A stretch of DNA of 64,000 bases from Thermoplasmata archaeon (GCA_041489255.1 JBGPQV010000007.1:4006-68005); one strand, 5' to 3'. Shown: positions 14,492 to 63,543, counted from the stretch's first letter. The notes: generated from the sequence alone by a model not told the origin. Translations and numbers: made by a program.

Positions 14492-14513
14492 GAGCCTGAG
14501 GTTCTTTGGACGC

Positions 14514-14586
14514 AGCCCCGTGGTGTAGTGGCCTAGCATACGGGCCTTTGGAGCCTGTGACGGCAGTTCAAATCTGCCCGGGGCTG
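14514..14586 (+). tRNA. tRNA-Gln (anticodon UUG)
   Basis: hand-folded cloverleaf: acceptor AGCCCCG/CGGGGCU, anticodon stem CGGGC/GCCUG with loop CU-UUG-GA, T-arm GGCAG-UUCAAAU-CUGCC, discriminator G. Confidence 0.8.
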
Positions 14587-14695
14587 TTTCTAGGGGTCGA
14601 TCCATCGCGCCTTTCTGGCTGTCAGGTACGCCATCGCGACGGCGAAAAGGATGGATATCGTGAGAGAACGACGACGGGCGCGCAGTTCGGCTGAA

Positions 14696-44386: not shown

Positions 44387-46909
44387 TCAGCCCGGGACAT
44401 TCCACGAGACCGATGACGGAACGAAAATCCAGTAGCCCTCCCCCGCCATCATCGTGTATGAGTCAGGCACCCGCCGCAGGTAGTACGGCGCCGCCGTCGC
44501 GTCGAAGGCCTCGACGGAGACCGAGGGCATCCCCAGGGCGGCTTTAAGATCCGCAATCGCATAGCTCGCATTCATCGAGGGAAAACCGACCATGTTCCAG
44601 CCGGCATGGAGTTGAATGGTGGTCGTGTCGGGCCTCACGCCTATGACCGTGAGGTCGCATGCGGCCGTGACATTGATCCAGAACCCCATGCCGTTGTCGA
44701 GCCGCAGCAGGCTGTTCGGATTCCTTCCCGGCATGAACACCTTCCATGGGCTGACCGGATCCAACCCAGCATAGTACCGCACGTAGTCGAAGCAGCCCGC
44801 CACCGATGAGAGGACGCTCTCGATGCTCTCGTTGGCGGGAAGGAGAGGGAAGGACAAGAACCGGTGGCCCGGCGTCAGGTGGATGGTGTAGGTGGTGACG
44901 ACGCCGATCCTGCTGCACGCGACGTTGTTCGATTCGTCGAGCTCGTAGAACTCGTCGGGCGAGTCGGCGAAGACGCAGATGTCGTACCAGCCGTTCAGGC
45001 CAGTGGTGTCGAACTGGATGGAGGTCATTGTTAATGAGTCGTCATTCACCGTCGAGACGCCGCTGCTCAGCAATGTCCCGCCAAGGCGGGGGTCGCCAAG
45101 GTAGAACGAGACGGTCGCGTTCACCGCCGGGAAGTGGCCGACGTTGTGCACCGCCGCGTCCACGTCGATGGTCTCCCCCGGATTCGGGCGGGGGTTTGAG
45201 AAAATAATATCGTCAGGGGACAGGGTGAGGTCCGGGAGATAGCTCCTGTTGTACGGAGCGAGCTTCGGGTCGCCCATGATCGCGTCCATCCAGCTCAGGC
45301 CTATCTGGGATGCCATCATGTAGCTCTCGGCCAACGTGTATCCCCGGGTGTAGGCGTCGTAGAGGATGTCGGAGTGGGCTATCGCGCTTAGGTAGGGTTC
45401 GTAGACGTAGCCCTTCACACCGGTGACCCCGTCTCTGATGAGGTCCGCGACGAGAGACTGCCCATAACCGGTCCCATACACGAAGCTCCTCGCGCCGGTG
45501 GACACCGCCGTCTCCGCGAGGGAGCCTGGTATCCAGGTGTTGTGCGGTCTGATCTCGATCATCCGAATGTTATCGACGAACGCGGTGCCGTTCGCTTGGG
45601 CGAACACGACCGAGACCCTGAGCTTCATCGCTCCGGGAACCGGTTCGTAGATGACCTGAGGGAAGCCCCGCCATTTCGAGGTCCCCGACACGGCCGAACC
45701 GTTCACCACCGCCAGGACGTTGTCGTAGGAGTCGAGCGCCTTGATCTGGAGGAACAGCCCGCGCCCGGCCACGCCGGTGTAGTTCGCGCTGCCTGTGAGG
45801 AAGTACCTGCTCCCAACCACGGCGGAGAAGTTCTCGGAGACCGCGGTGTAGTTGCCATCGGCGAATGGCCTCTCGATCCTCAGAGACCAGAAGCCCGATT
45901 CGAACACGCTCGAGTTCCTCGACACGCTGGCCGTCCCCGCCGGATCGTCGTAGAACCATCCATCCGGGACGCCGTTCGAGTCCGCGTCACTCTCAAGGCC
46001 TGAGTTCGAATTCATGGCGGTGTACCATGTGCCGTCGTTGCTGCCCCAGCTGGAGTATCCCGCCACGTTGGAGTCGTTCGTGAGGAAAGCGTAGGTCTCA
46101 TCCAGCGTAACGTCGAAACCTCTGGCGGTGAGGATGGGGGCGGCGTCCCTCATCCAGTCGTTACCGACCTGGTAGGCGCCTCCATCTTTCCCCGGATCGA
46201 CATCAAGAACGAACTTACCTCGGCGACCGATCGCCTCCGTTGCCTTGTCGACCAGGCCGAGCGCCTCGGGGACGGTGAACGCGGTCAGGCGGGTGACTAT
46301 GTAGAACCCCCACCTCGCGCGGGTGAAAGGCGCGAACTTGTCATAGTATGGGTTATTGAACCATCGGTTGCGGCCGATTTGACTTTCATAAGGACCGCCA
46401 ACGAGTGCCAGCTCTGAGTCCACCGACGATGAGTTCTCCCAAGGAGACCGCCAAGTCCCCAGCGGTACGCCCTTCGTCGTCACGAGGAAGTTGATCGCCG
46501 TGCTCGGCGGGATGGCGTTCAAGCAGGTCTTGACCTGGTTCGCGAGGGCGGTGAATGTAGCCCCGTCGATTTGTTCGTTAGGGGAGGTCGTGACGTTGCA
46601 GACATGTGCCCAGCTGATGTTTCGCTGAGTTGTGAAGTAGTCCGCGATGGTCATCGAATCTGCCGAGTTCAGGTTGCGGATCACGAGGACATCCGAGTAG
46701 TTCACCAGGGAAGCGTAGCGCTTCGAAGGGACAGCGTCGGTCTGGAAGCCGCCGCCAGCCGTCTCTCTTCCTCCCGATGCGTTCGATTCGCGGCTGCCCG
46801 CACTGCTGGCTGGCGGGGCAGACGCTGAAATCGAGAGAAGAATCGCGAGCGCCAAGATGAGCGCGGAGGCCGCCGACAATGTCGATGAGAAACCGTCGCG
46901 GCTGTGCAT
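44387..46909 (-). CDS. large secreted protein with CARDB-like domain and the same conserved ~160-aa C-terminal domain as CDS 752..3772
   Basis: signal peptide; C-terminal 160 aa ~50% identical to C-terminus of 752..3772 (…GCFDYVRYYAGLDPVSPWK…GWNMVGFPS…APYYLRRV…GEGYWIFVP…). Confidence 0.75.
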   Translation of the reverse strand: MHSRDGFSSTLSAASALILALAILLSISASAPPASSAGSRESNASGGRETAGGGFQTDAVPSKRYASLVNYSDVLVIRNLNSADSMTIADYFTTQRNISWAHVCNVTTSPNEQIDGATFTALANQVKTCLNAIPPSTAINFLVTTKGVPLGTWRSPWENSSSVDSELALVGGPYESQIGRNRWFNNPYYDKFAPFTRARWGFYIVTRLTAFTVPEALGLVDKATEAIGRRGKFVLDVDPGKDGGAYQVGNDWMRDAAPILTARGFDVTLDETYAFLTNDSNVAGYSSWGSNDGTWYTAMNSNSGLESDADSNGVPDGWFYDDPAGTASVSRNSSVFESGFWSLRIERPFADGNYTAVSENFSAVVGSRYFLTGSANYTGVAGRGLFLQIKALDSYDNVLAVVNGSAVSGTSKWRGFPQVIYEPVPGAMKLRVSVVFAQANGTAFVDNIRMIEIRPHNTWIPGSLAETAVSTGARSFVYGTGYGQSLVADLIRDGVTGVKGYVYEPYLSAIAHSDILYDAYTRGYTLAESYMMASQIGLSWMDAIMGDPKLAPYNRSYLPDLTLSPDDIIFSNPRPNPGETIDVDAAVHNVGHFPAVNATVSFYLGDPRLGGTLLSSGVSTVNDDSLTMTSIQFDTTGLNGWYDICVFADSPDEFYELDESNNVACSRIGVVTTYTIHLTPGHRFLSFPLLPANESIESVLSSVAGCFDYVRYYAGLDPVSPWKVFMPGRNPNSLLRLDNGMGFWINVTAACDLTVIGVRPDTTTIQLHAGWNMVGFPSMNASYAIADLKAALGMPSVSVEAFDATAAPYYLRRVPDSYTMMAGEGYWIFVPSSVSWNVPG

Positions 46910-54308: not shown

Positions 54309-54440
54309 TCAGGATTCTCGAATCCCGTCCACAGCCCGCTCCGCTTCCTTCTTCGGCTCCCTAGCCTCGGATAGCGCCCGACAATCGCGCAGTCCGCCCC
54401 TGCCATGATCGCATCCGAAGCGCATCAGTCGGGCGGCGAC
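54309..54440 (-). pseudogene. degenerate duplicate of pyrF 3' end (…CRALSEAREPKKEAERAVDGIRES*)
   Basis: ~85% nt identity with 1-nt indel to 55752..55860 (pyrF C-terminus …GRAIYEAKEPRKEAEQVIEGIR…). Confidence 0.65.
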
Positions 54441-55180
54441 ATACACTCTCTCCATGATGTGGGATCCTCGGACAACTGTGGGACATCCGGGGACAATCGC
54501 ATGAGATCCACGAGCAGTTCGATGCAACTTTCAGAAATCCGTCATGAACCCTCCAACGCTCCGCGCGCAACCCCAAACAATCGGAAGGACTCCCCCAACG
54601 AACCGCGCGGGATTCAAGACAATCGATAGATATCTCCGGATGGCCAAAACCCACTTCCAGACGATTGTCCGGGACTTCCAGACAACCCTCTGGGACCTCC
54701 AGAAGGATCTCTCGCGGTCCCAGACGACCATTTTGGACCATCAGAGGTCCGAATGGGGGTCCGGACGACCCGAACCACCCGCCAGACGACTCTCTGATAC
54801 CTCCAGAGGATCGTTCGGGACCTCCAGAAGACCGTCTGGCGGTCGCGGAGGGCTGAAGGAGGGGGGTTAGAGCCTTCTGACACTTCCAGACGACTGTCTG
54901 GGACTAGCTTCGGACCGTCTGACGGTTCCTCCGGACTTTCTGGCGTTGTCAGAAGACCGTCTGGCGGTTCCAGACGACTGTCTGGGACTCGCCTTGAATC
55001 CGCTGGATAAGGGATTGGATCGGCTGAAGATGCGTTCGCGTGCTCTCGCGGTCCGTCAGGACCCGCTTGATATTGGATTGAGTCGGCTGGAGGTGTGTCG
55101 GAGTGTTCTCAAGGTCCGCGAGGGTCGTCCGGGATTGGACGCGGATCGTCGAGAGGTGGGATCCAATCGGCTGATGGACG
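54440..55180. repeat. tandem array of ~35 degenerate 21-bp units (cores ggacaatcg / ccagacgactgtctggga), strict phase; related to array 37559..38000
   Basis: caatcg at 54494, 54578, 54620 (multiples of 21); units at 54654, 54675, 54717, 54780, 54801, 54822, 54885, 54948, 54969 … all in phase. Confidence 0.8.
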
Positions 55181-55261
55181 CTCTTCCGTGTCTGTTGCAA
55201 TCCTGCACACAGACCGGTCTTGTTCGCGGCGGGAAAGAATCAACAGAGGCTTTCCTCGAAT

Positions 55262-55714: not shown

Positions 55715-56362
55715 CTAAGATCGGAAAGTTACGCGAATGCCTTCAATGACCTGTTCCGCTTCCTTCCTCGGCTCCTTCGCCTCGTATATCGCCCGCCCCA
55801 CGATCACGTAATCCGCCCCTGCTCTGATTGCGTCGGCAGCGCTCCCGCCCTGCGCACCGACTCCAGGCGTCGCGATGCGGAGACTCCCGACAATCTCCCT
55901 CATCCTCCTAATCCTTTCCGGCCTCGTGGCGGGAGCGATGATGCCAGTTGCCCCGACCTTCACCGCCATCCTCGCGATCTCCTCCGCTATCGGCGCGCTG
56001 AACCTCTCAGCCCCGGGGTGGCTCATCTCCGTCACAACGAACACGTCGCCCTTGGCGGCATCCACGCACGCTTTCACCGAGTCCTCGCCTGGGAAGCCGT
56101 GGACGATCACGCCCGATGCCCCGCGGCGGAAAGCCTCCTGCACGATGAGGCGGTTGGTGTTCGGGATGTCGGCGACCTTGAAGTCGCAGAGCACGTCCGA
56201 CTCCTTCGCGAGCTTTGTGATGATTTCGGGTCCGACCCCTAGGATGATCGGCCAGTTGACCTTGATGGCGTCAACGAGGTTTTTCACTTCGCCCGCGATT
56301 TTGAGCGCCCTCTTTTCCTCCACGACATCGAGCGCCAGAATCAGATGAGAGTCGAGCTTCAT
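55715..56362 (-). CDS. pyrF: orotidine 5'-phosphate decarboxylase
   Basis: LALDV…, DFKVADIPNT, catalytic K/D pattern, GVGAQGG phosphate-binding end. Confidence 0.85.
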   Translation of the reverse strand: MKLDSHLILALDVVEEKRALKIAGEVKNLVDAIKVNWPIILGVGPEIITKLAKESDVLCDFKVADIPNTNRLIVQEAFRRGASGVIVHGFPGEDSVKACVDAAKGDVFVVTEMSHPGAERFSAPIAEEIARMAVKVGATGIIAPATRPERIRRMREIVGSLRIATPGVGAQGGSAADAIRAGADYVIVGRAIYEAKEPRKEAEQVIEGIRVTFRS

Positions 56363-56386
56363 CGCCCGCCGTCTAGGTGCACGCGC

Positions 56387-56393
56387 GATATAA
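56387..56393 (-). promoter_or_regulatory. TATA box for pyrF
   Basis: minus-strand CTTATAT 25-31 nt upstream of ATG 56362. Confidence 0.45.
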
Positions 56394-56406
56394 GCGTTTT
56401 TCCGGG

Positions 56407-56541
56407 CTAGCGGGCAAACCTTCTCTCCTCACCGAGGGGCTTCGTCGGCGCCTGCTTGCAGCACGCCGAGCAGTCCCGGCACCGCCAGTCCGCCGCGCAC
56501 AGCACTGCGACCGTGGTGCCGCATGACGGACAGTCTATCAT
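56407..56541 (-). CDS. candidate 44-aa zinc-ribbon protein (MIDCPSCGTTVAVLCAADWRCRDCSACCKQ…)
   Basis: CPxC…CRDC…CC pattern; could be a GC-rich chance ORF. Confidence 0.25.
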   Translation of the reverse strand: MIDCPSCGTTVAVLCAADWRCRDCSACCKQAPTKPLGEERRFAR

Positions 56542-56654
56542 GTTGCCCTTACGGCATGCCTAGAATGTATACCTTGGCGATTCCACGAGGATTTTTGGGG
56601 CGGAGCAACTATTAAGTAAGATGCCTACAATCCTTCTCGCGAGTTCCAAGAGCC

Positions 56655-57209
56655 ATGCCCGAAAACCGCCACGTGAAATCGAAGGTCTGCCTCGTCGGCG
56701 AGGCAGCGGTCGGCAAGACCTCCCTCGTCCGCCGCTACGTCGTGGACGAGTTCGACGACAAGTACATCACCACCCTGGGGGCGAAGGTCTCCAAGAAGGA
56801 GATGGAGTACGACTACCCGGAGAAGGACATCCACGTGGACATGGACATGACCATTTGGGACATCATGGGCGAGAAGGGGTTCAGGGATCTCCTCAGCGAC
56901 GCTTACTTCCAGGGAGCGAAAGGGGTGATCGCGGTCTGCGATATCACCCGCATATCGACCGTGAAGGAGCTCGACGACTGGATCAAGTCTGTCTTCGAGG
57001 TGGTCGGCGAGGTCCCCGTGGTCTACGCGGTGAACAAGAACGACCTGCGGGACGAGGTCATGCTGATGTTCACGGAGAAAGACCTGAAGCAGTGGACGCG
57101 TGCCTTCGACGCGCAGTACTTCTACACCTCGGCGAAGACGGGGGAGAACGTGGAGAAGGCGTTCAAGGCGCTCGGGGCCGCGATCGTGGCGAAATCTGGC
57201 GTGTTATAG
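56655..57209 (+). CDS. Ras/Rab-like small GTPase
   Basis: G1 GEAAVGKTS, G3 WDIMGEKG, G4 NKND, G5 SAK. Confidence 0.8.
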   Translation: MPENRHVKSKVCLVGEAAVGKTSLVRRYVVDEFDDKYITTLGAKVSKKEMEYDYPEKDIHVDMDMTIWDIMGEKGFRDLLSDAYFQGAKGVIAVCDITRISTVKELDDWIKSVFEVVGEVPVVYAVNKNDLRDEVMLMFTEKDLKQWTRAFDAQYFYTSAKTGENVEKAFKALGAAIVAKSGVL

Positions 57210-57298
57210 GCTCTGAGAATCACGGCGGAGAATCTAAATAGCCTCCTTTTAGCTGGCTTGACGCTTCTGCAGTCAGGGGGCCCGCGGGAACGAGCACT

Positions 57299-57841
57299 GT
57301 CGTCAAGGAACTGAAGAGCAAGATATGCCTTGTCGGTGAGAAGAGCGTCGGCAAGACATCCCTCATACGACGCTTCGTCCTCGACACATTCGACGACAAG
57401 TACGTGGTGACCGTCGGCACAAAGATCACGAAGAAGGAGGTCAACGTCTTCAAGCCGGAGCTTGAGGGCGAGGTCCGCGTCGACATGACGATCTGGGACA
57501 TCATGGGCGAGAAGGGGTTCAGGGAGCTCCTCAAGGACGCTTACTTCTACGGGGCGAACGGCGTCCTTGCTGTGGCCGACCTGACGAGGAAGAAATCGCT
57601 CAACGACCTGGACGACTGGATCGACGGCGTCGAGAAGATAGCCGGCAAGGTGCCTATATTCATCGCGGTGAACAAGTGCGACCTGATCGATCAGGCGCAG
57701 TTCTCGCTAAAGGAGGTCTCGCAGATGGCGAAGGCCTTCGATTCCGAATTCCTTCACACTTCGGCGAAGACGGGAGAGGGGGTCGAGCAGTGCTTCAAGA
57801 AGCTAGGGGATTTGGTGGTCGAGCATCAGCTTGGCATGTAG
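57299..57841 (+). CDS. Ras/Rab-like small GTPase (paralogue); no canonical start codon upstream of G1 in frame
   Basis: G1 GEKSVGKTS, G3 WDIMGEKG, G4 NKCD, G5 SAK; frame open from stop at 57239 but no ATG/GTG/TTG before the P-loop. Confidence 0.65.
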   Translation, partial: VVKELKSKICLVGEKSVGKTSLIRRFVLDTFDDKYVVTVGTKITKKEVNVFKPELEGEVRVDMTIWDIMGEKGFRELLKDAYFYGANGVLAVADLTRKKSLNDLDDWIDGVEKIAGKVPIFIAVNKCDLIDQAQFSLKEVSQMAKAFDSEFLHTSAKTGEGVEQCFKKLGDLVVEHQLGM

Positions 57842-57992
57842 GCATTGTTAGATGCGCCGCTCCGACATACTTAAATATGCGGAGGTGGATGAAAAGCCCC
57901 CTCGGCGCAGGCGCGGGATTGCCCGGCATATGGAAGCTCTTTGGTCATTGTGTGGGGGCTTCTGACCCGGGAAGCGAGAAGGGAAGGCGATC

Positions 57993-60900
57993 ATGAGGCG
58001 AGACACGGAAAGACGATGGTCGGGCATTGCCATCCTCCTAGTCCTGACTCTGCCGGGAGGCTTCATCGGTTCTTTCGCGCCGATGGCGGGTGGAGTGCCG
58101 TCTGTCAAGAACCTGGAGACGGGGAACAAGACGGTGAGCTGGAACTTCACTGATCCTGCGGACTACTCTTTCACGAATGTCACTTTGGCGGGTCGACTTG
58201 ACCAGACCAGCGACGTGCTGACGCAGGACGCGACTCAAGATCTAGTGGCTAATGGTACGTGGGATAACACAAACCTCACGATATCTGGCGGATCAATTGC
58301 TAGTCGCGAGTTCAGAAAGGAATTGGTCATAAACGGGACATTTGACGCGTCACCACCATGGAGGTACGCAAATGGAACGGGCGGCAATCTGTCCGCTGAA
58401 TGGAGTGCAGCTAATCGGACAGCGAGCTACGTCCATAGTCGAGGGGCGTCAGCCGCTGTACAGTTCGATGAGATGGATGCCGTAGCAGGATGGACTTACT
58501 CCTCCACAGGCACTCCCTCCCCGCTGGGAGGCATATCACTGGACAATGTTTATTTCAAAGAGCCAACAGCGTCGATTCTCCTAGATGTGAGATTTAGGGG
58601 GGATCCGACCGGCTGGGCCGCTGCGAGACGGCTTGGCCTCTGGGATTGGTCATCCTACAATATGCTATCCGTGTGGCTGAATACAACATACATAGCTCCA
58701 GAAGTTCCGCTCGCCTTTGTCAATTTGGTCGCCGGCGGATCGCCCTGTGATTCGGCTCTTGCTTGGATGAAACCCGGCTGGTCAAGGTATTATTTTGATA
58801 TCTCAGGATGCTCAGGCCTGACGGCCGTGACGGATGTTGATTTCCGTTTCACTAATGTGACTGGTAACTCATGGGAGCAGATATGGGTCGATGATGTCTG
58901 GCTCTATCATTTCGACAACATCACTCAATCGGCTAGCATCTCTCAGGACATTCTGAAGATGAACTTCACTGCCCCTAATCCAATGACGCTCCTTCTGAGT
59001 TTCGACTACAAGGTTGATTCCGCGGCTAATCTCACCGACGCGAACCTCACCGCCTGGATCAACGGCGCTCTTCTGTCAATCCCGCCAATCCCCGCTAACG
59101 CGCCGATCGGTTGGACGCACGCGAGCTACGACATCAGCGTCGCCCTGACCGGGAAAGGGCTTTTCAATCTATCATTCATCGCAAGCCTATCACTGTTTAC
59201 TCCTTATGCCACATCAATGAAAGTGGAGATAGACAACACTTCTGTGACCGTCCCCGACTACCATGGGGGCATCTACGAATCCGTTCCGTTCAATCTTGGC
59301 CACGCCGTGCGCTTCGACAACATCTCGTTCGCATCGTCTAGCCACCCGGACACGAACGTCACGGTCGAGGTCCGCGGCGGTTGGTCGAACCAGACGGACG
59401 ACGGCTCATGGACTCCATGGGAGCAGCACTTCAATTCGTCAGAGATTCTTCTGAACAATTCCAGCGCCAGTTTCCTTCAGTATCGCGTGATCCTGAACAC
59501 CACGAACGCCAGCGCGGCGGTCTCCTTCGACTGGATCAAGTTCGAATTCCACAGATACGTCGATGGCGGCAGCGTGCAGACGGTCGACTGGTCTCCGCCA
59601 GAGACTCTGATCGGTTGGAGGCGGTTCGGGGCGAACTACACCGTTCCGCCGTTCACCTCAGTTGATTTCTACATCTCCAACGACACAGGTTCCATCTGGT
59701 ATCCGGTCATGCCTGGCGATTCCCTCGATACGCTTGGCGGCAACACGATCAGCATCAAGGCGGAATTCGAGACCCTCAACACGACATTCACGCCCGAGTT
59801 GTTCGAGCTCAACGTGACCTATGAGTTCCTCGGGCCGCTGGACAAGATCACCGTGAGCCCGGCGACATGGTCAGGCACCGCGGACGATCAGATATCATTC
59901 ACCGCCAAGGCGAACGACCAATGGGGCCACCTGATCACGCTATTCACCCCGATTTGGACCGATGATGATCCTGCCGGCAGCGTCAATCCCAGCGGCCTGT
60001 ATCAGGCTGGTACAGAAGGGAACTGGCACGTATGTGCCTCTTCTCTGGGAATCGTTGACTGCGCCAACGTGACCGTCACTCACGGAAGGTTGGTCCGCAT
60101 CGATATCAGCCCGACCTCTGCCTTCGTGATGGCGAAGACCACCCGCCTTTTCAGCGCTTCGGGCTTCGACGTCTTCGGCAACGACGTCCCCCTCACGGAC
60201 ACTTCATGGACCACCGATGTCGGCAACTTCAGCAGCCTCACGCCGGCAAACGCCATTTTCATGGCTATCGGAGTGCCCGGTGTGGGCAGTGTCTGGGCCA
60301 AACACAATTCCGCGTCAGGCCTCCTCGTGGCGCGGGCGGACGTGACAGTGACCGCATCGAACACGGTGGTCATCCAGGGCCTCGTGCCGAACCAGAGTAA
60401 GCCCGAGGACTCCCCGCCGTGGCAGCTGAATCTGACGCCCTACCTGCCGCCGGGCCCGAGTCCAGACGACCTGATGTGGTACCTCGAGGACAAGAACGAG
60501 GCGCTCTACACGGTCCTCGGCGAGAGACGCTTCGGCCAGCACGTCCTCACGTTCTATCCCAAGCAGGACGCGTTCGGCGACAATGACGTGACCCTCTGGC
60601 TGGAGGACCGTCTCGGCGCGAGAGACTCTCAGCCCCTCCTTGTCTCCCTGACGCCCGTGAACGACCCTCCGGTGTTCTATGACGTCCCACGCTTGCAGAT
60701 CAAGGCTGGGGTCTCCTACGTATTCGACTACTCGCCTTATGTCTACGACGTCGACACCCCCAAGGACATGCTCATCCTCAGCACCGACGACCAGACGCAC
60801 ACGAAGACCGTCGGGCTCACCGTCAATTACACCTACGATTCGAGCTACGCAGGACAGACGGTCATGGTCCGCTTGAGAATATCTGACGGCTCAAGTTCAT

Positions 60901-62630
60901 CCTCCACGATCCAGCTCATCGACATAGTCGGCGGCGACAACGCCTGCCCGCACGTGCTGAAGCCCCTGCCCCCTGTCTCGATGTTCGAGGACGTGCCGAT
61001 TACGGATGCTTTCCCCGACATCCTCCAGAACTACTTCGGCGACGCGGATGGGGATCCACTCACCTACAGCTTCGGCCACCCGCAACACATGACGATCAGC
61101 ACATGGACCACGCCACCGAACTACATACACGTGAACATCACCTCGGAGCTCGACTGGTACGGCATTGAGTACCTCACCGCAAGAGCGACCGACCCCTCAG
61201 GCTGCTTCGCGGAGCAGACAGTGCGCGTCACCGTCGTCCCCGTGAACGACCCGCCCGTGCTCGATTGGCACGACGACATATACATCAAGCGCGACATGCC
61301 CTACAACCTCGACTTGACGGACTTCGTGAGCGACGTGGACAACCCGATGTCTGAGCTCACCCTGGACACGAACAACACAATCCTCGCGACTGTCGAGTTC
61401 TTCAACATCCACCTCCTCGCGACCTACCAGATAGGGCTGGTCACGTCACTGCACCTATCCCTCTCGCTCACGGACGGACAGGCCACCGTCTGGTCCAACG
61501 TAACAGTGCGCATAGGGACTAACGAGCCGCCGATGCTCAGGCCGGGGACGAGCCTCCCTGACGTCACTTTCAACGAGGACACGCAGGCCGTCATGGTGTT
61601 CGACATGGACAGCTACTTCGCCGACGCTGACGGCCCGCAGCCGCTGACATACTCGGTCCTGACAGAGACGGTAATCGCCCAGGTCGACAACAGTTACAAC
61701 TACGTGAACTTCAGCGCCCCGCCGAACTGGAACGGCCAGGAGGTCGTCCACGTCAGGGCGTCTGACGGGCTCGGCTTCGTGATCGGCAGGCTCACTGTCA
61801 GGGTCATCCCGGTGAACGACGCGCCTGTCATAGACCCGATGCCTGACTGGGACTTCGGAGACGGCGGCATCGTGGCGATCGACCTGAGGCAGTACGTGCA
61901 TGACGTGGACAACAATATCACCGAGCTCAGGTTCAACACGAACACCCCGCACGCGACGACGGTCGGGTACATCCTGATCCTCGATTACCAGGACGGCGCC
62001 GCGTCGGAGATTGTGGCGCTCACGGTGAACGACACGATGCTGAACGCGTCGAGGTCGTTCACGGTGACGACGAAGGGGACGTTGCCGGACAACCCTCCGC
62101 CGCTCTGGGCGCAGATACTCTGGCCGTGGTCTATCATCATCCTCGTGATCCTGGCGGCGATAGGCGCCGTGGCTTACAACAGGGTGCTCGACAGGCGCTA
62201 CACCATGGAGGACGCCTTCCTCGTCGGCAAGGAGGGTCGGCTGATAATGCACACCACCCGCCACCTGATGGCCGACAGGGACGAGGACATCCTGGCGGGG
62301 ATGCTGACCGCGATCCAGATGTTCATCAAGGATTCGTTCAAGGAAGAGGGCGGGGACCTGAGGAACTTCCAGTTCGGCGATAACCAAGTCCTGGTCGACA
62401 GAGGCGAGCGCTTCTACTTCGCAGCGATGTACTCAGGCGAACCGCCAGAGACCGCTGCGGACAGCATGACCGCCTTCACGGCTGACATCGAGGCATCCTT
62501 CGGACCGATTTTAGAACGCTGGTCGGGCGACGCGGACGAGTTGAAGGGGCTGAGGTCCCTCATGGACGCGTTCACGGCGCACCGCAGGTACAGGCAGGGC
62601 GATTTCAAGAAGTTCGTCAAGAAGGCCTAG
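57993..62630 (+). CDS. 1545-aa transmembrane giant protein: extracellular cadherin-like repeats, single TM, cytoplasmic Roadblock/LC7-like domain
   Basis: signal/TM at N-terminus; >=5 modules ending (V/I)(P/T)VNDxPV with DADGD-type Ca sites; TM LWAQILWPWSIIILVILAAIGAVAYN; C-terminal ~150 aa with beta-alpha-beta-beta pattern (AFLVGKEGRLIMHT…ILAGMLTAIQMFIKDSF…LRNFQFGDNQVLVDRGERFYFAAMYSGE). Confidence 0.75.
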   Translation: MRRDTERRWSGIAILLVLTLPGGFIGSFAPMAGGVPSVKNLETGNKTVSWNFTDPADYSFTNVTLAGRLDQTSDVLTQDATQDLVANGTWDNTNLTISGGSIASREFRKELVINGTFDASPPWRYANGTGGNLSAEWSAANRTASYVHSRGASAAVQFDEMDAVAGWTYSSTGTPSPLGGISLDNVYFKEPTASILLDVRFRGDPTGWAAARRLGLWDWSSYNMLSVWLNTTYIAPEVPLAFVNLVAGGSPCDSALAWMKPGWSRYYFDISGCSGLTAVTDVDFRFTNVTGNSWEQIWVDDVWLYHFDNITQSASISQDILKMNFTAPNPMTLLLSFDYKVDSAANLTDANLTAWINGALLSIPPIPANAPIGWTHASYDISVALTGKGLFNLSFIASLSLFTPYATSMKVEIDNTSVTVPDYHGGIYESVPFNLGHAVRFDNISFASSSHPDTNVTVEVRGGWSNQTDDGSWTPWEQHFNSSEILLNNSSASFLQYRVILNTTNASAAVSFDWIKFEFHRYVDGGSVQTVDWSPPETLIGWRRFGANYTVPPFTSVDFYISNDTGSIWYPVMPGDSLDTLGGNTISIKAEFETLNTTFTPELFELNVTYEFLGPLDKITVSPATWSGTADDQISFTAKANDQWGHLITLFTPIWTDDDPAGSVNPSGLYQAGTEGNWHVCASSLGIVDCANVTVTHGRLVRIDISPTSAFVMAKTTRLFSASGFDVFGNDVPLTDTSWTTDVGNFSSLTPANAIFMAIGVPGVGSVWAKHNSASGLLVARADVTVTASNTVVIQGLVPNQSKPEDSPPWQLNLTPYLPPGPSPDDLMWYLEDKNEALYTVLGERRFGQHVLTFYPKQDAFGDNDVTLWLEDRLGARDSQPLLVSLTPVNDPPVFYDVPRLQIKAGVSYVFDYSPYVYDVDTPKDMLILSTDDQTHTKTVGLTVNYTYDSSYAGQTVMVRLRISDGSSSSSTIQLIDIVGGDNACPHVLKPLPPVSMFEDVPITDAFPDILQNYFGDADGDPLTYSFGHPQHMTISTWTTPPNYIHVNITSELDWYGIEYLTARATDPSGCFAEQTVRVTVVPVNDPPVLDWHDDIYIKRDMPYNLDLTDFVSDVDNPMSELTLDTNNTILATVEFFNIHLLATYQIGLVTSLHLSLSLTDGQATVWSNVTVRIGTNEPPMLRPGTSLPDVTFNEDTQAVMVFDMDSYFADADGPQPLTYSVLTETVIAQVDNSYNYVNFSAPPNWNGQEVVHVRASDGLGFVIGRLTVRVIPVNDAPVIDPMPDWDFGDGGIVAIDLRQYVHDVDNNITELRFNTNTPHATTVGYILILDYQDGAASEIVALTVNDTMLNASRSFTVTTKGTLPDNPPPLWAQILWPWSIIILVILAAIGAVAYNRVLDRRYTMEDAFLVGKEGRLIMHTTRHLMADRDEDILAGMLTAIQMFIKDSFKEEGGDLRNFQFGDNQVLVDRGERFYFAAMYSGEPPETAADSMTAFTADIEASFGPILERWSGDADELKGLRSLMDAFTAHRRYRQGDFKKFVKKA

Positions 62631-63543
62631 GCGGCCCGGCAGAATCGCCATCGCCCTCCCGCTTCCTGTAGATCCTCCCGACGTACTTCCTGTAGTCGTG
62701 GTTCGGTCCCTTCCGCCAAGGCAGCTCGAACAGGCCGTTGATGTTCACGTACAATTCGGGCAAGAGCCAGAAGCAAAAGACCAGGAGCATGACGAGGACC
62801 AGCACCGCCAGCCCCTTCCCCCAGTACCCGTGCGCCAGCTCGAATTCGACGTGCTGCACGTCGAATGAATAGATCACCACGAAGTTCCTCACCAGGTTCA
62901 TGAAGTAGGTCACCGGGATGACGACGGCGGCTGCCAGGAGCTTCCTCTTTGGCGGCTCCTTCACGCCGAGGATCATCGCGACCGCGATGGCGATGCCCTG
63001 GATTGCGGTGCACGCGAGGATGATGTGGACGACCGGCCTGCCGACGGAGTTGAGCAGGGGCGCGTAGATATCCTCCCCGTTGACGCGGTAGAATGGCGGG
63101 TTGCCCACGAGCGTGGCGGGTCCCGCGGTGTATGAGACGTTCGCGGCGCCGAGCAGGGCGGCCGTCTGCTGGGTCACCGCCTCGATGAGCCATGCGGAGA
63201 GCTGGGGGATCCTGTCCACGACGAAGTAGATTGTCGACGCGATGAAGGCGGCACCCGCCAGGAACCTCAGCGGCTCGTACTCATCGTTCCACTGGTACGA
63301 GAGTCGCTCGTGATATGCGAAGAAGAGGAAGGCGATGAACGCCCCGATGCTCCCGAGCACGTTCAGCAGGTCGAGGGAGAAAGCGTATGATGGGGCCTGG
63401 GCCAGCCAGAATATCGCGAAGATGGCCCATCCGGCCGCGCGGAACTGGTGACACCTCCTCTTCTTCCAGAGGAACCCTATTCCCAAGGCCACCAGCCCCG
63501 AGAACAGGAGAATGTCGTTGAGGATCCTGAGTTCGCCCGCCAT
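62617..63543 (-). CDS. polytopic membrane protein, exosortase/archaeosortase-family-like
   Basis: ~8 TM; candidate active-site Cys in PVVHIILACTAIQGIA (cf. exosortase P..V…ACSGI.S) and NLVRN Arg motif. Confidence 0.45.
   Translation of the reverse strand: MAGELRILNDILLFSGLVALGIGFLWKKRRCHQFRAAGWAIFAIFWLAQAPSYAFSLDLLNVLGSIGAFIAFLFFAYHERLSYQWNDEYEPLRFLAGAAFIASTIYFVVDRIPQLSAWLIEAVTQQTAALLGAANVSYTAGPATLVGNPPFYRVNGEDIYAPLLNSVGRPVVHIILACTAIQGIAIAVAMILGVKEPPKRKLLAAAVVIPVTYFMNLVRNFVVIYSFDVQHVEFELAHGYWGKGLAVLVLVMLLVFCFWLLPELYVNINGLFELPWRKGPNHDYRKYVGRIYRKREGDGDSAGPPRPS

Follow-up and report, generated by a model that had tools for sequence, protein, structure and literature searches.

The window analyzed here is a 64,000-nucleotide stretch of DNA from a Thermoplasmata archaeon (GCA_041489255.1, JBGPQV010000007.1:4006-68005), with a G+C content of ~60%. 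Four genes located at 56655-63543 were verified by listing of open reading frames (ORFs) and by direct reading of the sequence. Two paralogous Ras/Rab-like GTPases are followed by a 1545-amino acid (aa) single-pass surface protein, hereafter the receptor, and then by a convergent archaeosortase A gene. The closest public relative, at ~95% DNA identity, is a metagenome-assembled genome (MAG) labelled Methanobacteriota/Thermoplasmata archaeon (L002), and other relatives are Thermoplasmata and Methanomassiliicoccales MAGs. A preliminary description of the locus had proposed that the receptor carries, on its cytoplasmic end, a platform domain for the neighboring small GTPases. This core idea held up, as did the account of two tandem Ras-like GTPases with complete G1-G5 motifs lying upstream of the 1545-aa protein.

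GTPase 1 (56655..57209, plus strand) encodes a 184-aa Ras/Rab-like protein that matches Pfam Ras at E=1.5e-31. Its paralogue GTPase 2 (57290..57841, plus strand, start putative) is 56% identical to it and matches the same family at E=8e-35, and for both proteins Pfam also returned Roc and, weakly, Arf. The motifs read GEAAVGKT (G1), DIMG (G3), NKND (G4) and SAK (G5) in GTPase 1, and GEKSVGKT, DIMG, NKCD and SAK in GTPase 2. As the G3 aspartate is retained in both, an MglA-type GTPase could be ruled out by the criterion of PMC4316618. The best solved relative of GTPase 1 is a Thorarchaeota Rab (7ezb, 1.7e-23), followed by Rab21/22/6/1 and Ran. Rab relatives in the PDB are matched only at E-values of 1e-23 to 1e-18, and the prenylatable cysteine expected of a Rab-type protein is absent; the C-termini (...AKSGVL and ...EHQLGM) contain no cysteine and hence no prenylation or lipidation motif. 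Relatives of GTPase 1 fall into 2288 clusters at E<=1e-10, and some of those in Thermoplasmata MAGs carry the NCBI names 'Rab family GTPase' or 'small GTP-binding protein'. Judged by their motifs, both proteins are best classified as Ras/Rab-like GTPases of the 'Rup' type.

In established Ras biochemistry, the glycine at position 12 and the glutamine at position 61 are central to hydrolysis of GTP. In the G3 motif of both window GTPases, a glutamate stands at the position of the catalytic glutamine (Gln61 of Ras), and the position of Ras G12 is occupied by alanine in GTPase 1 and by lysine in GTPase 2. The sequence WDIMGE, which includes this glutamate, is present in both proteins and in all orthologues belonging to the same giant-receptor gene arrangement. 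We infer from the loss of both residues that intrinsic hydrolysis would be very slow and that the nucleotide cycle is probably dependent on a partner.

The reading frame of GTPase 2 is open from 57242, and no ATG, GTG or TTG is found between the upstream stop codon (57239-57241) and the P-loop. In eight other loci, the orthologues start 13-14 codons ahead of the P-loop, and in both the window and L002 an ACG at 57290 (position 15) stands where these orthologues have ATG or GTG. Comparison of GTPase 2 between the window and this 95%-identical relative revealed 24 synonymous versus 4 non-synonymous codon differences, indicating that the gene is kept by purifying selection, and on this ratio we discarded the possibility that it is a pseudogene. 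The arrangement suggests non-canonical initiation or another route to expression. An A/T-rich, TATA-like element of its own can be read ahead of each of the two GTPase genes and the receptor gene; the three genes may therefore not be expressed as a single transcript.

The receptor gene (57993..62630, plus strand) encodes a type-I-like protein composed of a signal/anchor segment, a head, a repeat stalk, a transmembrane (TM) helix and a cytoplasmic tail. The N-terminal hydrophobic segment spans aa 9-32. A hydropathy scan identified a single TM helix (aa ~1372-1397; 62106..62183) that is followed by NRVLDRRY, and these basic residues place the tail side in the cytoplasm according to the positive-inside rule. 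The single TM helix and the cytoplasmic domain of ~150 aa after it are thus as initially described.

The tail (aa 1398-1545; 62184..62627) was modeled with AlphaFold 2 (AF2) from a diverse 24-row alignment, giving a predicted local distance difference test score (pLDDT) of 88.5 and a predicted template modeling score (pTM) of 0.84. The order of its elements is b1 b2 a1 b3 b4 b5 a2 a3, with DSSP assigning E11-19, E24-29, H38-55, E63-68, E71-77, E81-88, H95-115 and H121-136. The five strands form an antiparallel beta-meander with helix a1 on one face and helices a2 and a3 on the opposite face, which is the longin topology, and the solved structures nearest to the model are longin domains. The highest scores were obtained with AP-2 sigma (13.2), AP-3 sigma (12.8), Sec22b (12.1) and TRAPPC2 (11.9), followed by VAMP7 and Ykt6 (~11), NPRL2 (10.2), a Lokiarchaeota longin (10.1), Ccz1 and Mon1 (~10) and FLCN (10.0). 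We assign the tail a predicted longin fold, an assignment of fold and not of homology. Longin is a circularly permuted sister of Roadblock (PMC3521125; PMC3747258). The preliminary description, which had named the fold of the tail beforehand as a point on which its proposal could fail, had called the domain Roadblock-like. The model does fall within the Roadblock/longin structural group, but as a longin rather than a Roadblock/MglB domain. A Roadblock/LC7 (MglB-like) topology was excluded because the model has no packed N-terminal helix and has two C-terminal helices.

Word-indexed homologue searches with the tail gave merely 7 and 18 short proteins. The extent of the family was revealed by an exhaustive search of cluster representatives with a hidden Markov model (HMM) built from seven close homologues, which matched 4991 representatives at E<=1e-3, of which 3123 remained at E<=1e-10. 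Usually the domain follows a TM helix and ends the protein, whose length ranges from 170 to 2400 aa. Between archaea and bacteria, no residues are invariant other than LAGMLTA..F, in the N-terminal half of helix a1. In solved longin and Roadblock complexes, a1 mediates dimerization and also provides the 'top' face to which the GTPase binds (Levine 2013, PMC3747258). Given this role in known platforms and the invariance of LAGMLTA, we regard a1 as the putative GTPase-binding face of the tail. Tandem and multi-copy forms also occur (L070 266-1993, P0033; L071 6001-13134, P0024; P0009). Tandem forms have two longin-like domains in ~570 aa, and these tandem copies may be built-in pseudo-dimers. 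Multi-copy forms carry two or three copies ~500 aa apart in proteins of 2000-2400 aa, together with CARDB and a C-terminal DUF5915.

In order to assess linkage between the tail family and GTPases, we took one genome per species, giving 68 loci, and searched six-frame ORFs with the tail and GTPase HMMs. A Ras-like GTPase directly adjoins the tail gene in 40 of the 53 loci with enough flanking sequence and lies within 7 kb in 47, figures that apply to a set of loci biased toward members carrying the LAGMLTA and ADRDEDI motifs. The adjacency of GTPase and receptor genes, the second point on which the preliminary proposal could have failed, is therefore widely conserved. Linkage was seen in Thermoplasmatota, in cyanobacteria and in one Saprospiraceae bacterium, in three independent layouts with unrelated flanking genes. 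In layout (a), a giant receptor is preceded by two GTPases, as in the window (also L002, L005-7, L010, L014-16, L023, P0025 and P0027). In layout (b) (L029-L051), a TM-plus-tail protein of ~200 aa is followed 20-70 bp on by a GTPase of ~275 aa, and the flanks are housekeeping genes, namely succinyl-CoA ligase, Sua5 and Met-aminopeptidase. The GTPases of this layout (10432-11259 in L032, and ~25 similar loci) keep the catalytic glutamine and have a helical C-terminal extension of ~95 aa with no Pfam match. Layout (c) is bacterial (L059-61, L066-67 and L069). Here, the cyanobacterial protein consists of a low-complexity region, the tail domain, a TM helix, BON and OmpA; an overlapping GTPase gene comes next, then a PAS-HisKA-HATPase kinase, and a 199-aa unknown protein is encoded ahead of the cluster. 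The Saprospiraceae locus is a shorter version of this layout. In one further representative, the ectodomain is of the FG-GAP type and the GTPase lies on the opposite strand at a distance of 700 bp. Small Ras-like GTPases are rare in prokaryotes, with 520 found in 1,611 genomes and 17% of genomes having one (PMC4316618). Recurrence of the linkage in three layouts with unrelated flanks, in two domains of life and with such rare GTPases, goes far beyond what chance or inherited gene order would produce.

Layout (c) has a precedent. Wuichet and Sogaard-Andersen (2015, PMC4316618) described a Group 1 Rup neighborhood composed of a Rup GTPase lacking the G3 glutamine, a coiled-coil protein and a kinase or GGDEF output protein, with a membrane partner given as 'conserved domain of unknown function–TM–OmpA', and a trans-acting partner was postulated for these GTPases. 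We re-found this four-gene layout in Okeania, in the form of a 199-aa unknown protein, a domain-TM-OmpA protein, a Rup and a histidine kinase. The HMM of the window's tail recognizes the cyanobacterial domain-TM-BON-OmpA proteins with E-values of 1e-16 to 1e-20, and LAGMLTA is invariant. By these matches, layout (c) is evidently the Group 1 Rup neighborhood, and the window's tail a homologue of its unnamed domain. The GTPases are also alike: both sets are Ras-like with canonical G1-G5 and no G3 glutamine. The missing membrane anchor, the glutamate in place of glutamine and the alanine or lysine at G12 in the window match Group 1 Rup. There are nevertheless clear differences. In Group 1 Rup the domain is N-terminal to the TM helix and is followed by BON/OmpA, whereas in the window it follows both an ectodomain of 1370 aa and the TM helix. 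The window also has two paralogous GTPases, lacks kinase, GGDEF and coiled-coil neighbors, and its receptor has no OmpA. The 2015 paper assigned no fold to the domain and described the group in bacteria only.

Given the predicted fold, the linkage and the state of the GTPases, we favor, with moderate confidence, the reading that the two GTPases and the receptor constitute a transmembrane small-GTPase module in which a longin platform recruits or regulates both GTPases and is coupled to the ectodomain. By analogy with solved longin/Roadblock-GTPase complexes, the tails would pair through strand b3 and helix a1. Paired tails would then offer the a1 face with LAGMLTA as a membrane-tethered platform for two soluble, anchor-less GTPases. 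Such a platform could bring the GTPases to the membrane and bias their GDP/GTP state, acting as a scaffold that assists a guanine nucleotide exchange factor (GEF) or a GTPase-activating protein (GAP). In this way, the cytoplasmic GTPase switch would be coupled to events at the ectodomain, either ligand binding or clustering, in an outside-in or an inside-out direction. The tail model's fold, the membrane topology, the conserved motifs, the gene linkage across phyla and the purifying selection are the observations from which this module is drawn; binding of the GTPases, dimerization, GEF or GAP activity, a ligand and a downstream effector are inferred.

Several observations weigh against such a module. 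The longin assignment is structural only, as neither Pfam nor NCBIfam gave a longin-type match for the tail. Pfam Robl_LC7 (PF03259) is sub-threshold at 14.7 bits (cut-off 23, E=0.027). The tail sequence by itself matched nothing among PDB sequences, and a profile of 24 family members found no longin or Roadblock protein there. Six of the 53 loci with full flanks have no GTPase, and the tandem and multi-copy members of the family adjoin FEN1 with no GTPase nearby. In two soluble STAND-type proteins, encoded in Thermoplasmatota and Methanomassiliicoccales MAGs (L063 9653-12844 and L065 6889-10320), a longin-like domain is located between an AAA_16 ATPase and a TPR region. Near the archaeal module, no effector or output gene is evident. 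Finally, in the lineage of the window, the order pyrF-GTPase 1-GTPase 2-receptor-artA is syntenic as a whole, so adjacency there could be inherited order.

Some of these points would fit a different function for the tail, namely that of a longin-like regulatory domain that binds a ligand, lipid or peptide, comparable to SNARE longins or to PAS/GAF domains, and makes no contact with the GTPases, which would be neighbors through inherited order or co-regulation. The occurrence of family members without a nearby GTPase agrees with it, as does the equal synteny of pyrF and artA in the window's lineage. However, the adjacency recurs over two domains of life in three layouts that differ in flanks, orientation and domain order, and the rarity of Ras-like GTPases in prokaryotes (PMC4316618) makes chance adjacency in 40 of 53 loci implausible. 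We consider a tail with no GTPase contact improbable.

The receptor head (aa 29-700; 58077..60092) is all-beta, with beta-sandwiches resembling carbohydrate-binding modules (CBMs) and immunoglobulin (Ig)-like domains. It is shared, at 25-32% identity, with dozens of receptors of ~870 aa in which the repeat stalk is missing but the tail is the same. An AF2 model of the head from a 29-row alignment is all-beta with a pLDDT of 89.3 and a pTM of 0.57, a value that leaves the relative placement of the domains uncertain. The model suggests CBM-like beta-sandwiches, and glycan binding is a suggestion at the level of the fold only. The membrane-proximal stalk (aa ~790-1370; 60360..62102) consists of ~95-aa Ig/cadherin-like repeats. 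A regular-expression search located VNDPPV at 889 and 1084, NEPPM at 1177, VNDAPV at 1274 and DADG at 1017 and 1211. The stalk passes Pfam Big_9 (E=1.4e-7, score 32.8 against a cut-off of 23.6), and both Cadherin_4 (20.7 against 25.1) and the NCBIfam tandem-95 (67.4 against 90) stay under their cut-offs. The cadherin-like repeats first reported for the extracellular part are therefore borne out by three VNDxPV, one NEPPM and two DADG motifs in the stalk alone, and the head is CBM-like. The receptor contains 41 N-glycosylation sequons (N-x-S/T), every one N-terminal of the TM helix.

Comparison with L002 shows that aa ~55-446 of the head (58155..59330) are only 32-60% identical, versus 78-100% for the remainder of the protein, so that this part forms a sharply bounded cassette. 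The pattern suggests diversifying selection or recombination acting on exposed CBM-like domains. Across the family, one tail type is joined to differing ectodomains, including CBM-like heads, FG-GAP, Big_9 and CARDB, and a constant tail on varied ectodomains is what a family of receptors would be expected to show.

The same ectodomain features also fit a module for deployment or polarity of surface proteins, in which the longin tail serves the GTPases as an address tag by which they position, cluster or turn over the giant adhesin or envelope anchor at particular sites, much as MglA/SofG position motility and pilus machinery; the bacterial OmpA versions would be envelope tethers. The sequons, Ig-like repeats and CBM-like domains are adhesin- or S-layer-like, and hypervariability of the distal head among strains is what exposed adhesins would show. 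Bacterial homologues end in BON-OmpA peptidoglycan anchors and not in sensor domains, and the lack of an output gene near the archaeal module would be in keeping with deployment. On the other hand, the PAS-histidine kinase in the cyanobacterial neighborhood argues for signaling there, and family members of ~200 aa have hardly any ectodomain to deploy. Deployment shares its physical core with the transmembrane GTPase module, since in both the longin tail binds the GTPase, and the two differ only in the direction of information flow. We hold deployment to be a possible explanation, though a rather doubtful one.

The archaeosortase A gene (artA; 62617..63543, minus strand) matches TIGR04125 at 4e-37 (128 bits against a cut-off of 75). 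It is convergent with the receptor and overlaps the 3' end and stop codon of the receptor by 14 nt, so the exosortase/archaeosortase-like gene noted at this position can now be named more precisely. In the preliminary description it was counted as part of the signaling module, a claim that probably does not stand. If ArtA were a functional partner that processes or lipid-anchors the receptor, the four genes would make up a surface-biogenesis cluster, and the convergent overlap could be taken that way, as could the position of artA immediately after the receptor gene in 16 related loci and in L073. The receptor, however, has no PGF-CTERM, the defining signal, and its TM helix is instead followed by the 150-aa folded cytoplasmic domain. 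Furthermore, artA is missing beside the receptor in L007 and L072, and no bacterial or short-form archaeal locus has it. Conservation as a neighbor is just as strong for pyrF and the A-type ATPase operon, and ArtA is probably a syntenic bystander and not a functional part of the module; we consider a role in processing the receptor highly improbable.

The gene order around the module is itself of note. The order pyrF (minus), GTPase, GTPase, receptor, artA (minus) and A-type ATP synthase operon (minus) is found in the window (55715-63543), L002, L005, L010, L014-16, L023 and L073, and is kept although the tails are ~45% identical, which is unusually stable for functionally unrelated genes.

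Other systems of related logic are known. In MglA-MglB of Myxococcus and in archaeal MglAB-type operons, a small GTPase gene is likewise paired with a platform gene of the longin/Roadblock group. However, MglB is soluble with Roadblock topology, whereas the window's tail is modeled as a longin, and MglA lacks the G3 aspartate and has an intrinsic arginine finger, whereas the window's GTPases keep the aspartate. The Streptomyces conservon CvnA-D, proposed to be a G-protein-coupled-like signaling unit, likewise brings together a small GTPase, a Roadblock-group protein and a membrane sensor (PMC4316618). Its sensor is a histidine kinase, the Roadblock protein is separate and there is an extra DUF742 protein, whereas the window's receptor incorporates the platform and no kinase accompanies it. 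Longin platforms of eukaryotes and Asgard archaea include TRAPP C1/C4, Mon1-Ccz1, DENN, FLCN-FNIP, NPRL2/3, SRalpha-SRbeta and Ragulator-Rag. These also have Rab/Ras-like GTPase partners, and Ragulator and SR also tether the GTPase to a membrane by way of a longin/Roadblock module. Unlike in these platforms, to which the window's domain has no detectable sequence relationship, the domain is covalently part of a single-pass receptor, the host is neither an Asgard archaeon nor a eukaryote, and no accessory catalytic subunits were identified.

Rab-like GTPases were noted in Thermoplasmatales and Aciduliprofundum in 2016, with no analysis of partners (PMC4915359). Longin domains are otherwise discussed as eukaryotic and Asgard features (e.g., PMC3747258), and later work places them among Asgard-specific trafficking genes. 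In the literature covered, which was incomplete, no paper was found that gives this domain a longin fold or describes the receptor-fused archaeal form. The module is probably real and largely undescribed. The original remark that no description of such a system was known is thus upheld for the archaeal receptor form, but not for the bacterial homologues, which lie in the Group 1 Rup neighborhood (PMC4316618), and the conservon has a similar logic.

A small number of further observations were made in the window. None of the four proteins was matched by PADLOC, giving no sign of a role in anti-phage defense, and the sole RNA gene found is a distant tRNA-Gln at 14513-14587. The interval at 54350-55200, bordered by pyrF and a gene for a ZIP-family transporter, holds ~850 bp of degenerate repeats with a 21-nt period, as seen from autocorrelation peaks at 21, 42 and 63 nt. 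The ORFs there, on both strands, are all short and overlap one another, and Rfam gave no match; the flanks align to L002 and the repeat region does not. Elsewhere, two large secreted proteins (752-3805 and 44387-46909, both minus strand) share a nearly identical C-terminus of ~40 aa (...EAFD..AAPYYL.RV.DSY.M..GEGYWIFVP....W.V.G) that is not PGF-CTERM and may be a sorting or anchoring domain.

Taken as a family, the tail domains represent a predicted longin fold of ~5000 clusters that is unseen by Pfam and NCBIfam, occurs outside Asgard archaea and eukaryotes, and is genomically coupled to Ras-like GTPases. The orphan 'Rup' GTPases thereby gain a concrete candidate partner with a predicted binding face, and the 'domain of unknown function' of the 2015 Rup1 neighborhood can be given a name. 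For archaea, the architecture suggests a function for many giant 'hypothetical' surface proteins, namely that of receptors connected to a G-protein switch. Tentatively, and with considerable doubt, the longin-GTPase platform might have been invented neither by Asgard archaea nor by eukaryotes. It might be an ancient and widespread prokaryotic transmembrane signaling device of non-Asgard archaea and bacteria, in which a membrane-tethered longin domain bearing LAGMLTA is paired with Rup-type Ras-like GTPases, and eukaryotic longin-Rab might descend from it or share an ancestor with it, instead of having arisen by permutation of Roadblock in proto-eukaryotes. If the tail does bind the GTPases, the family would offer a prokaryotic model for the origin of longin control over Rab-type GTPases, with cyanobacteria as genetically tractable hosts.

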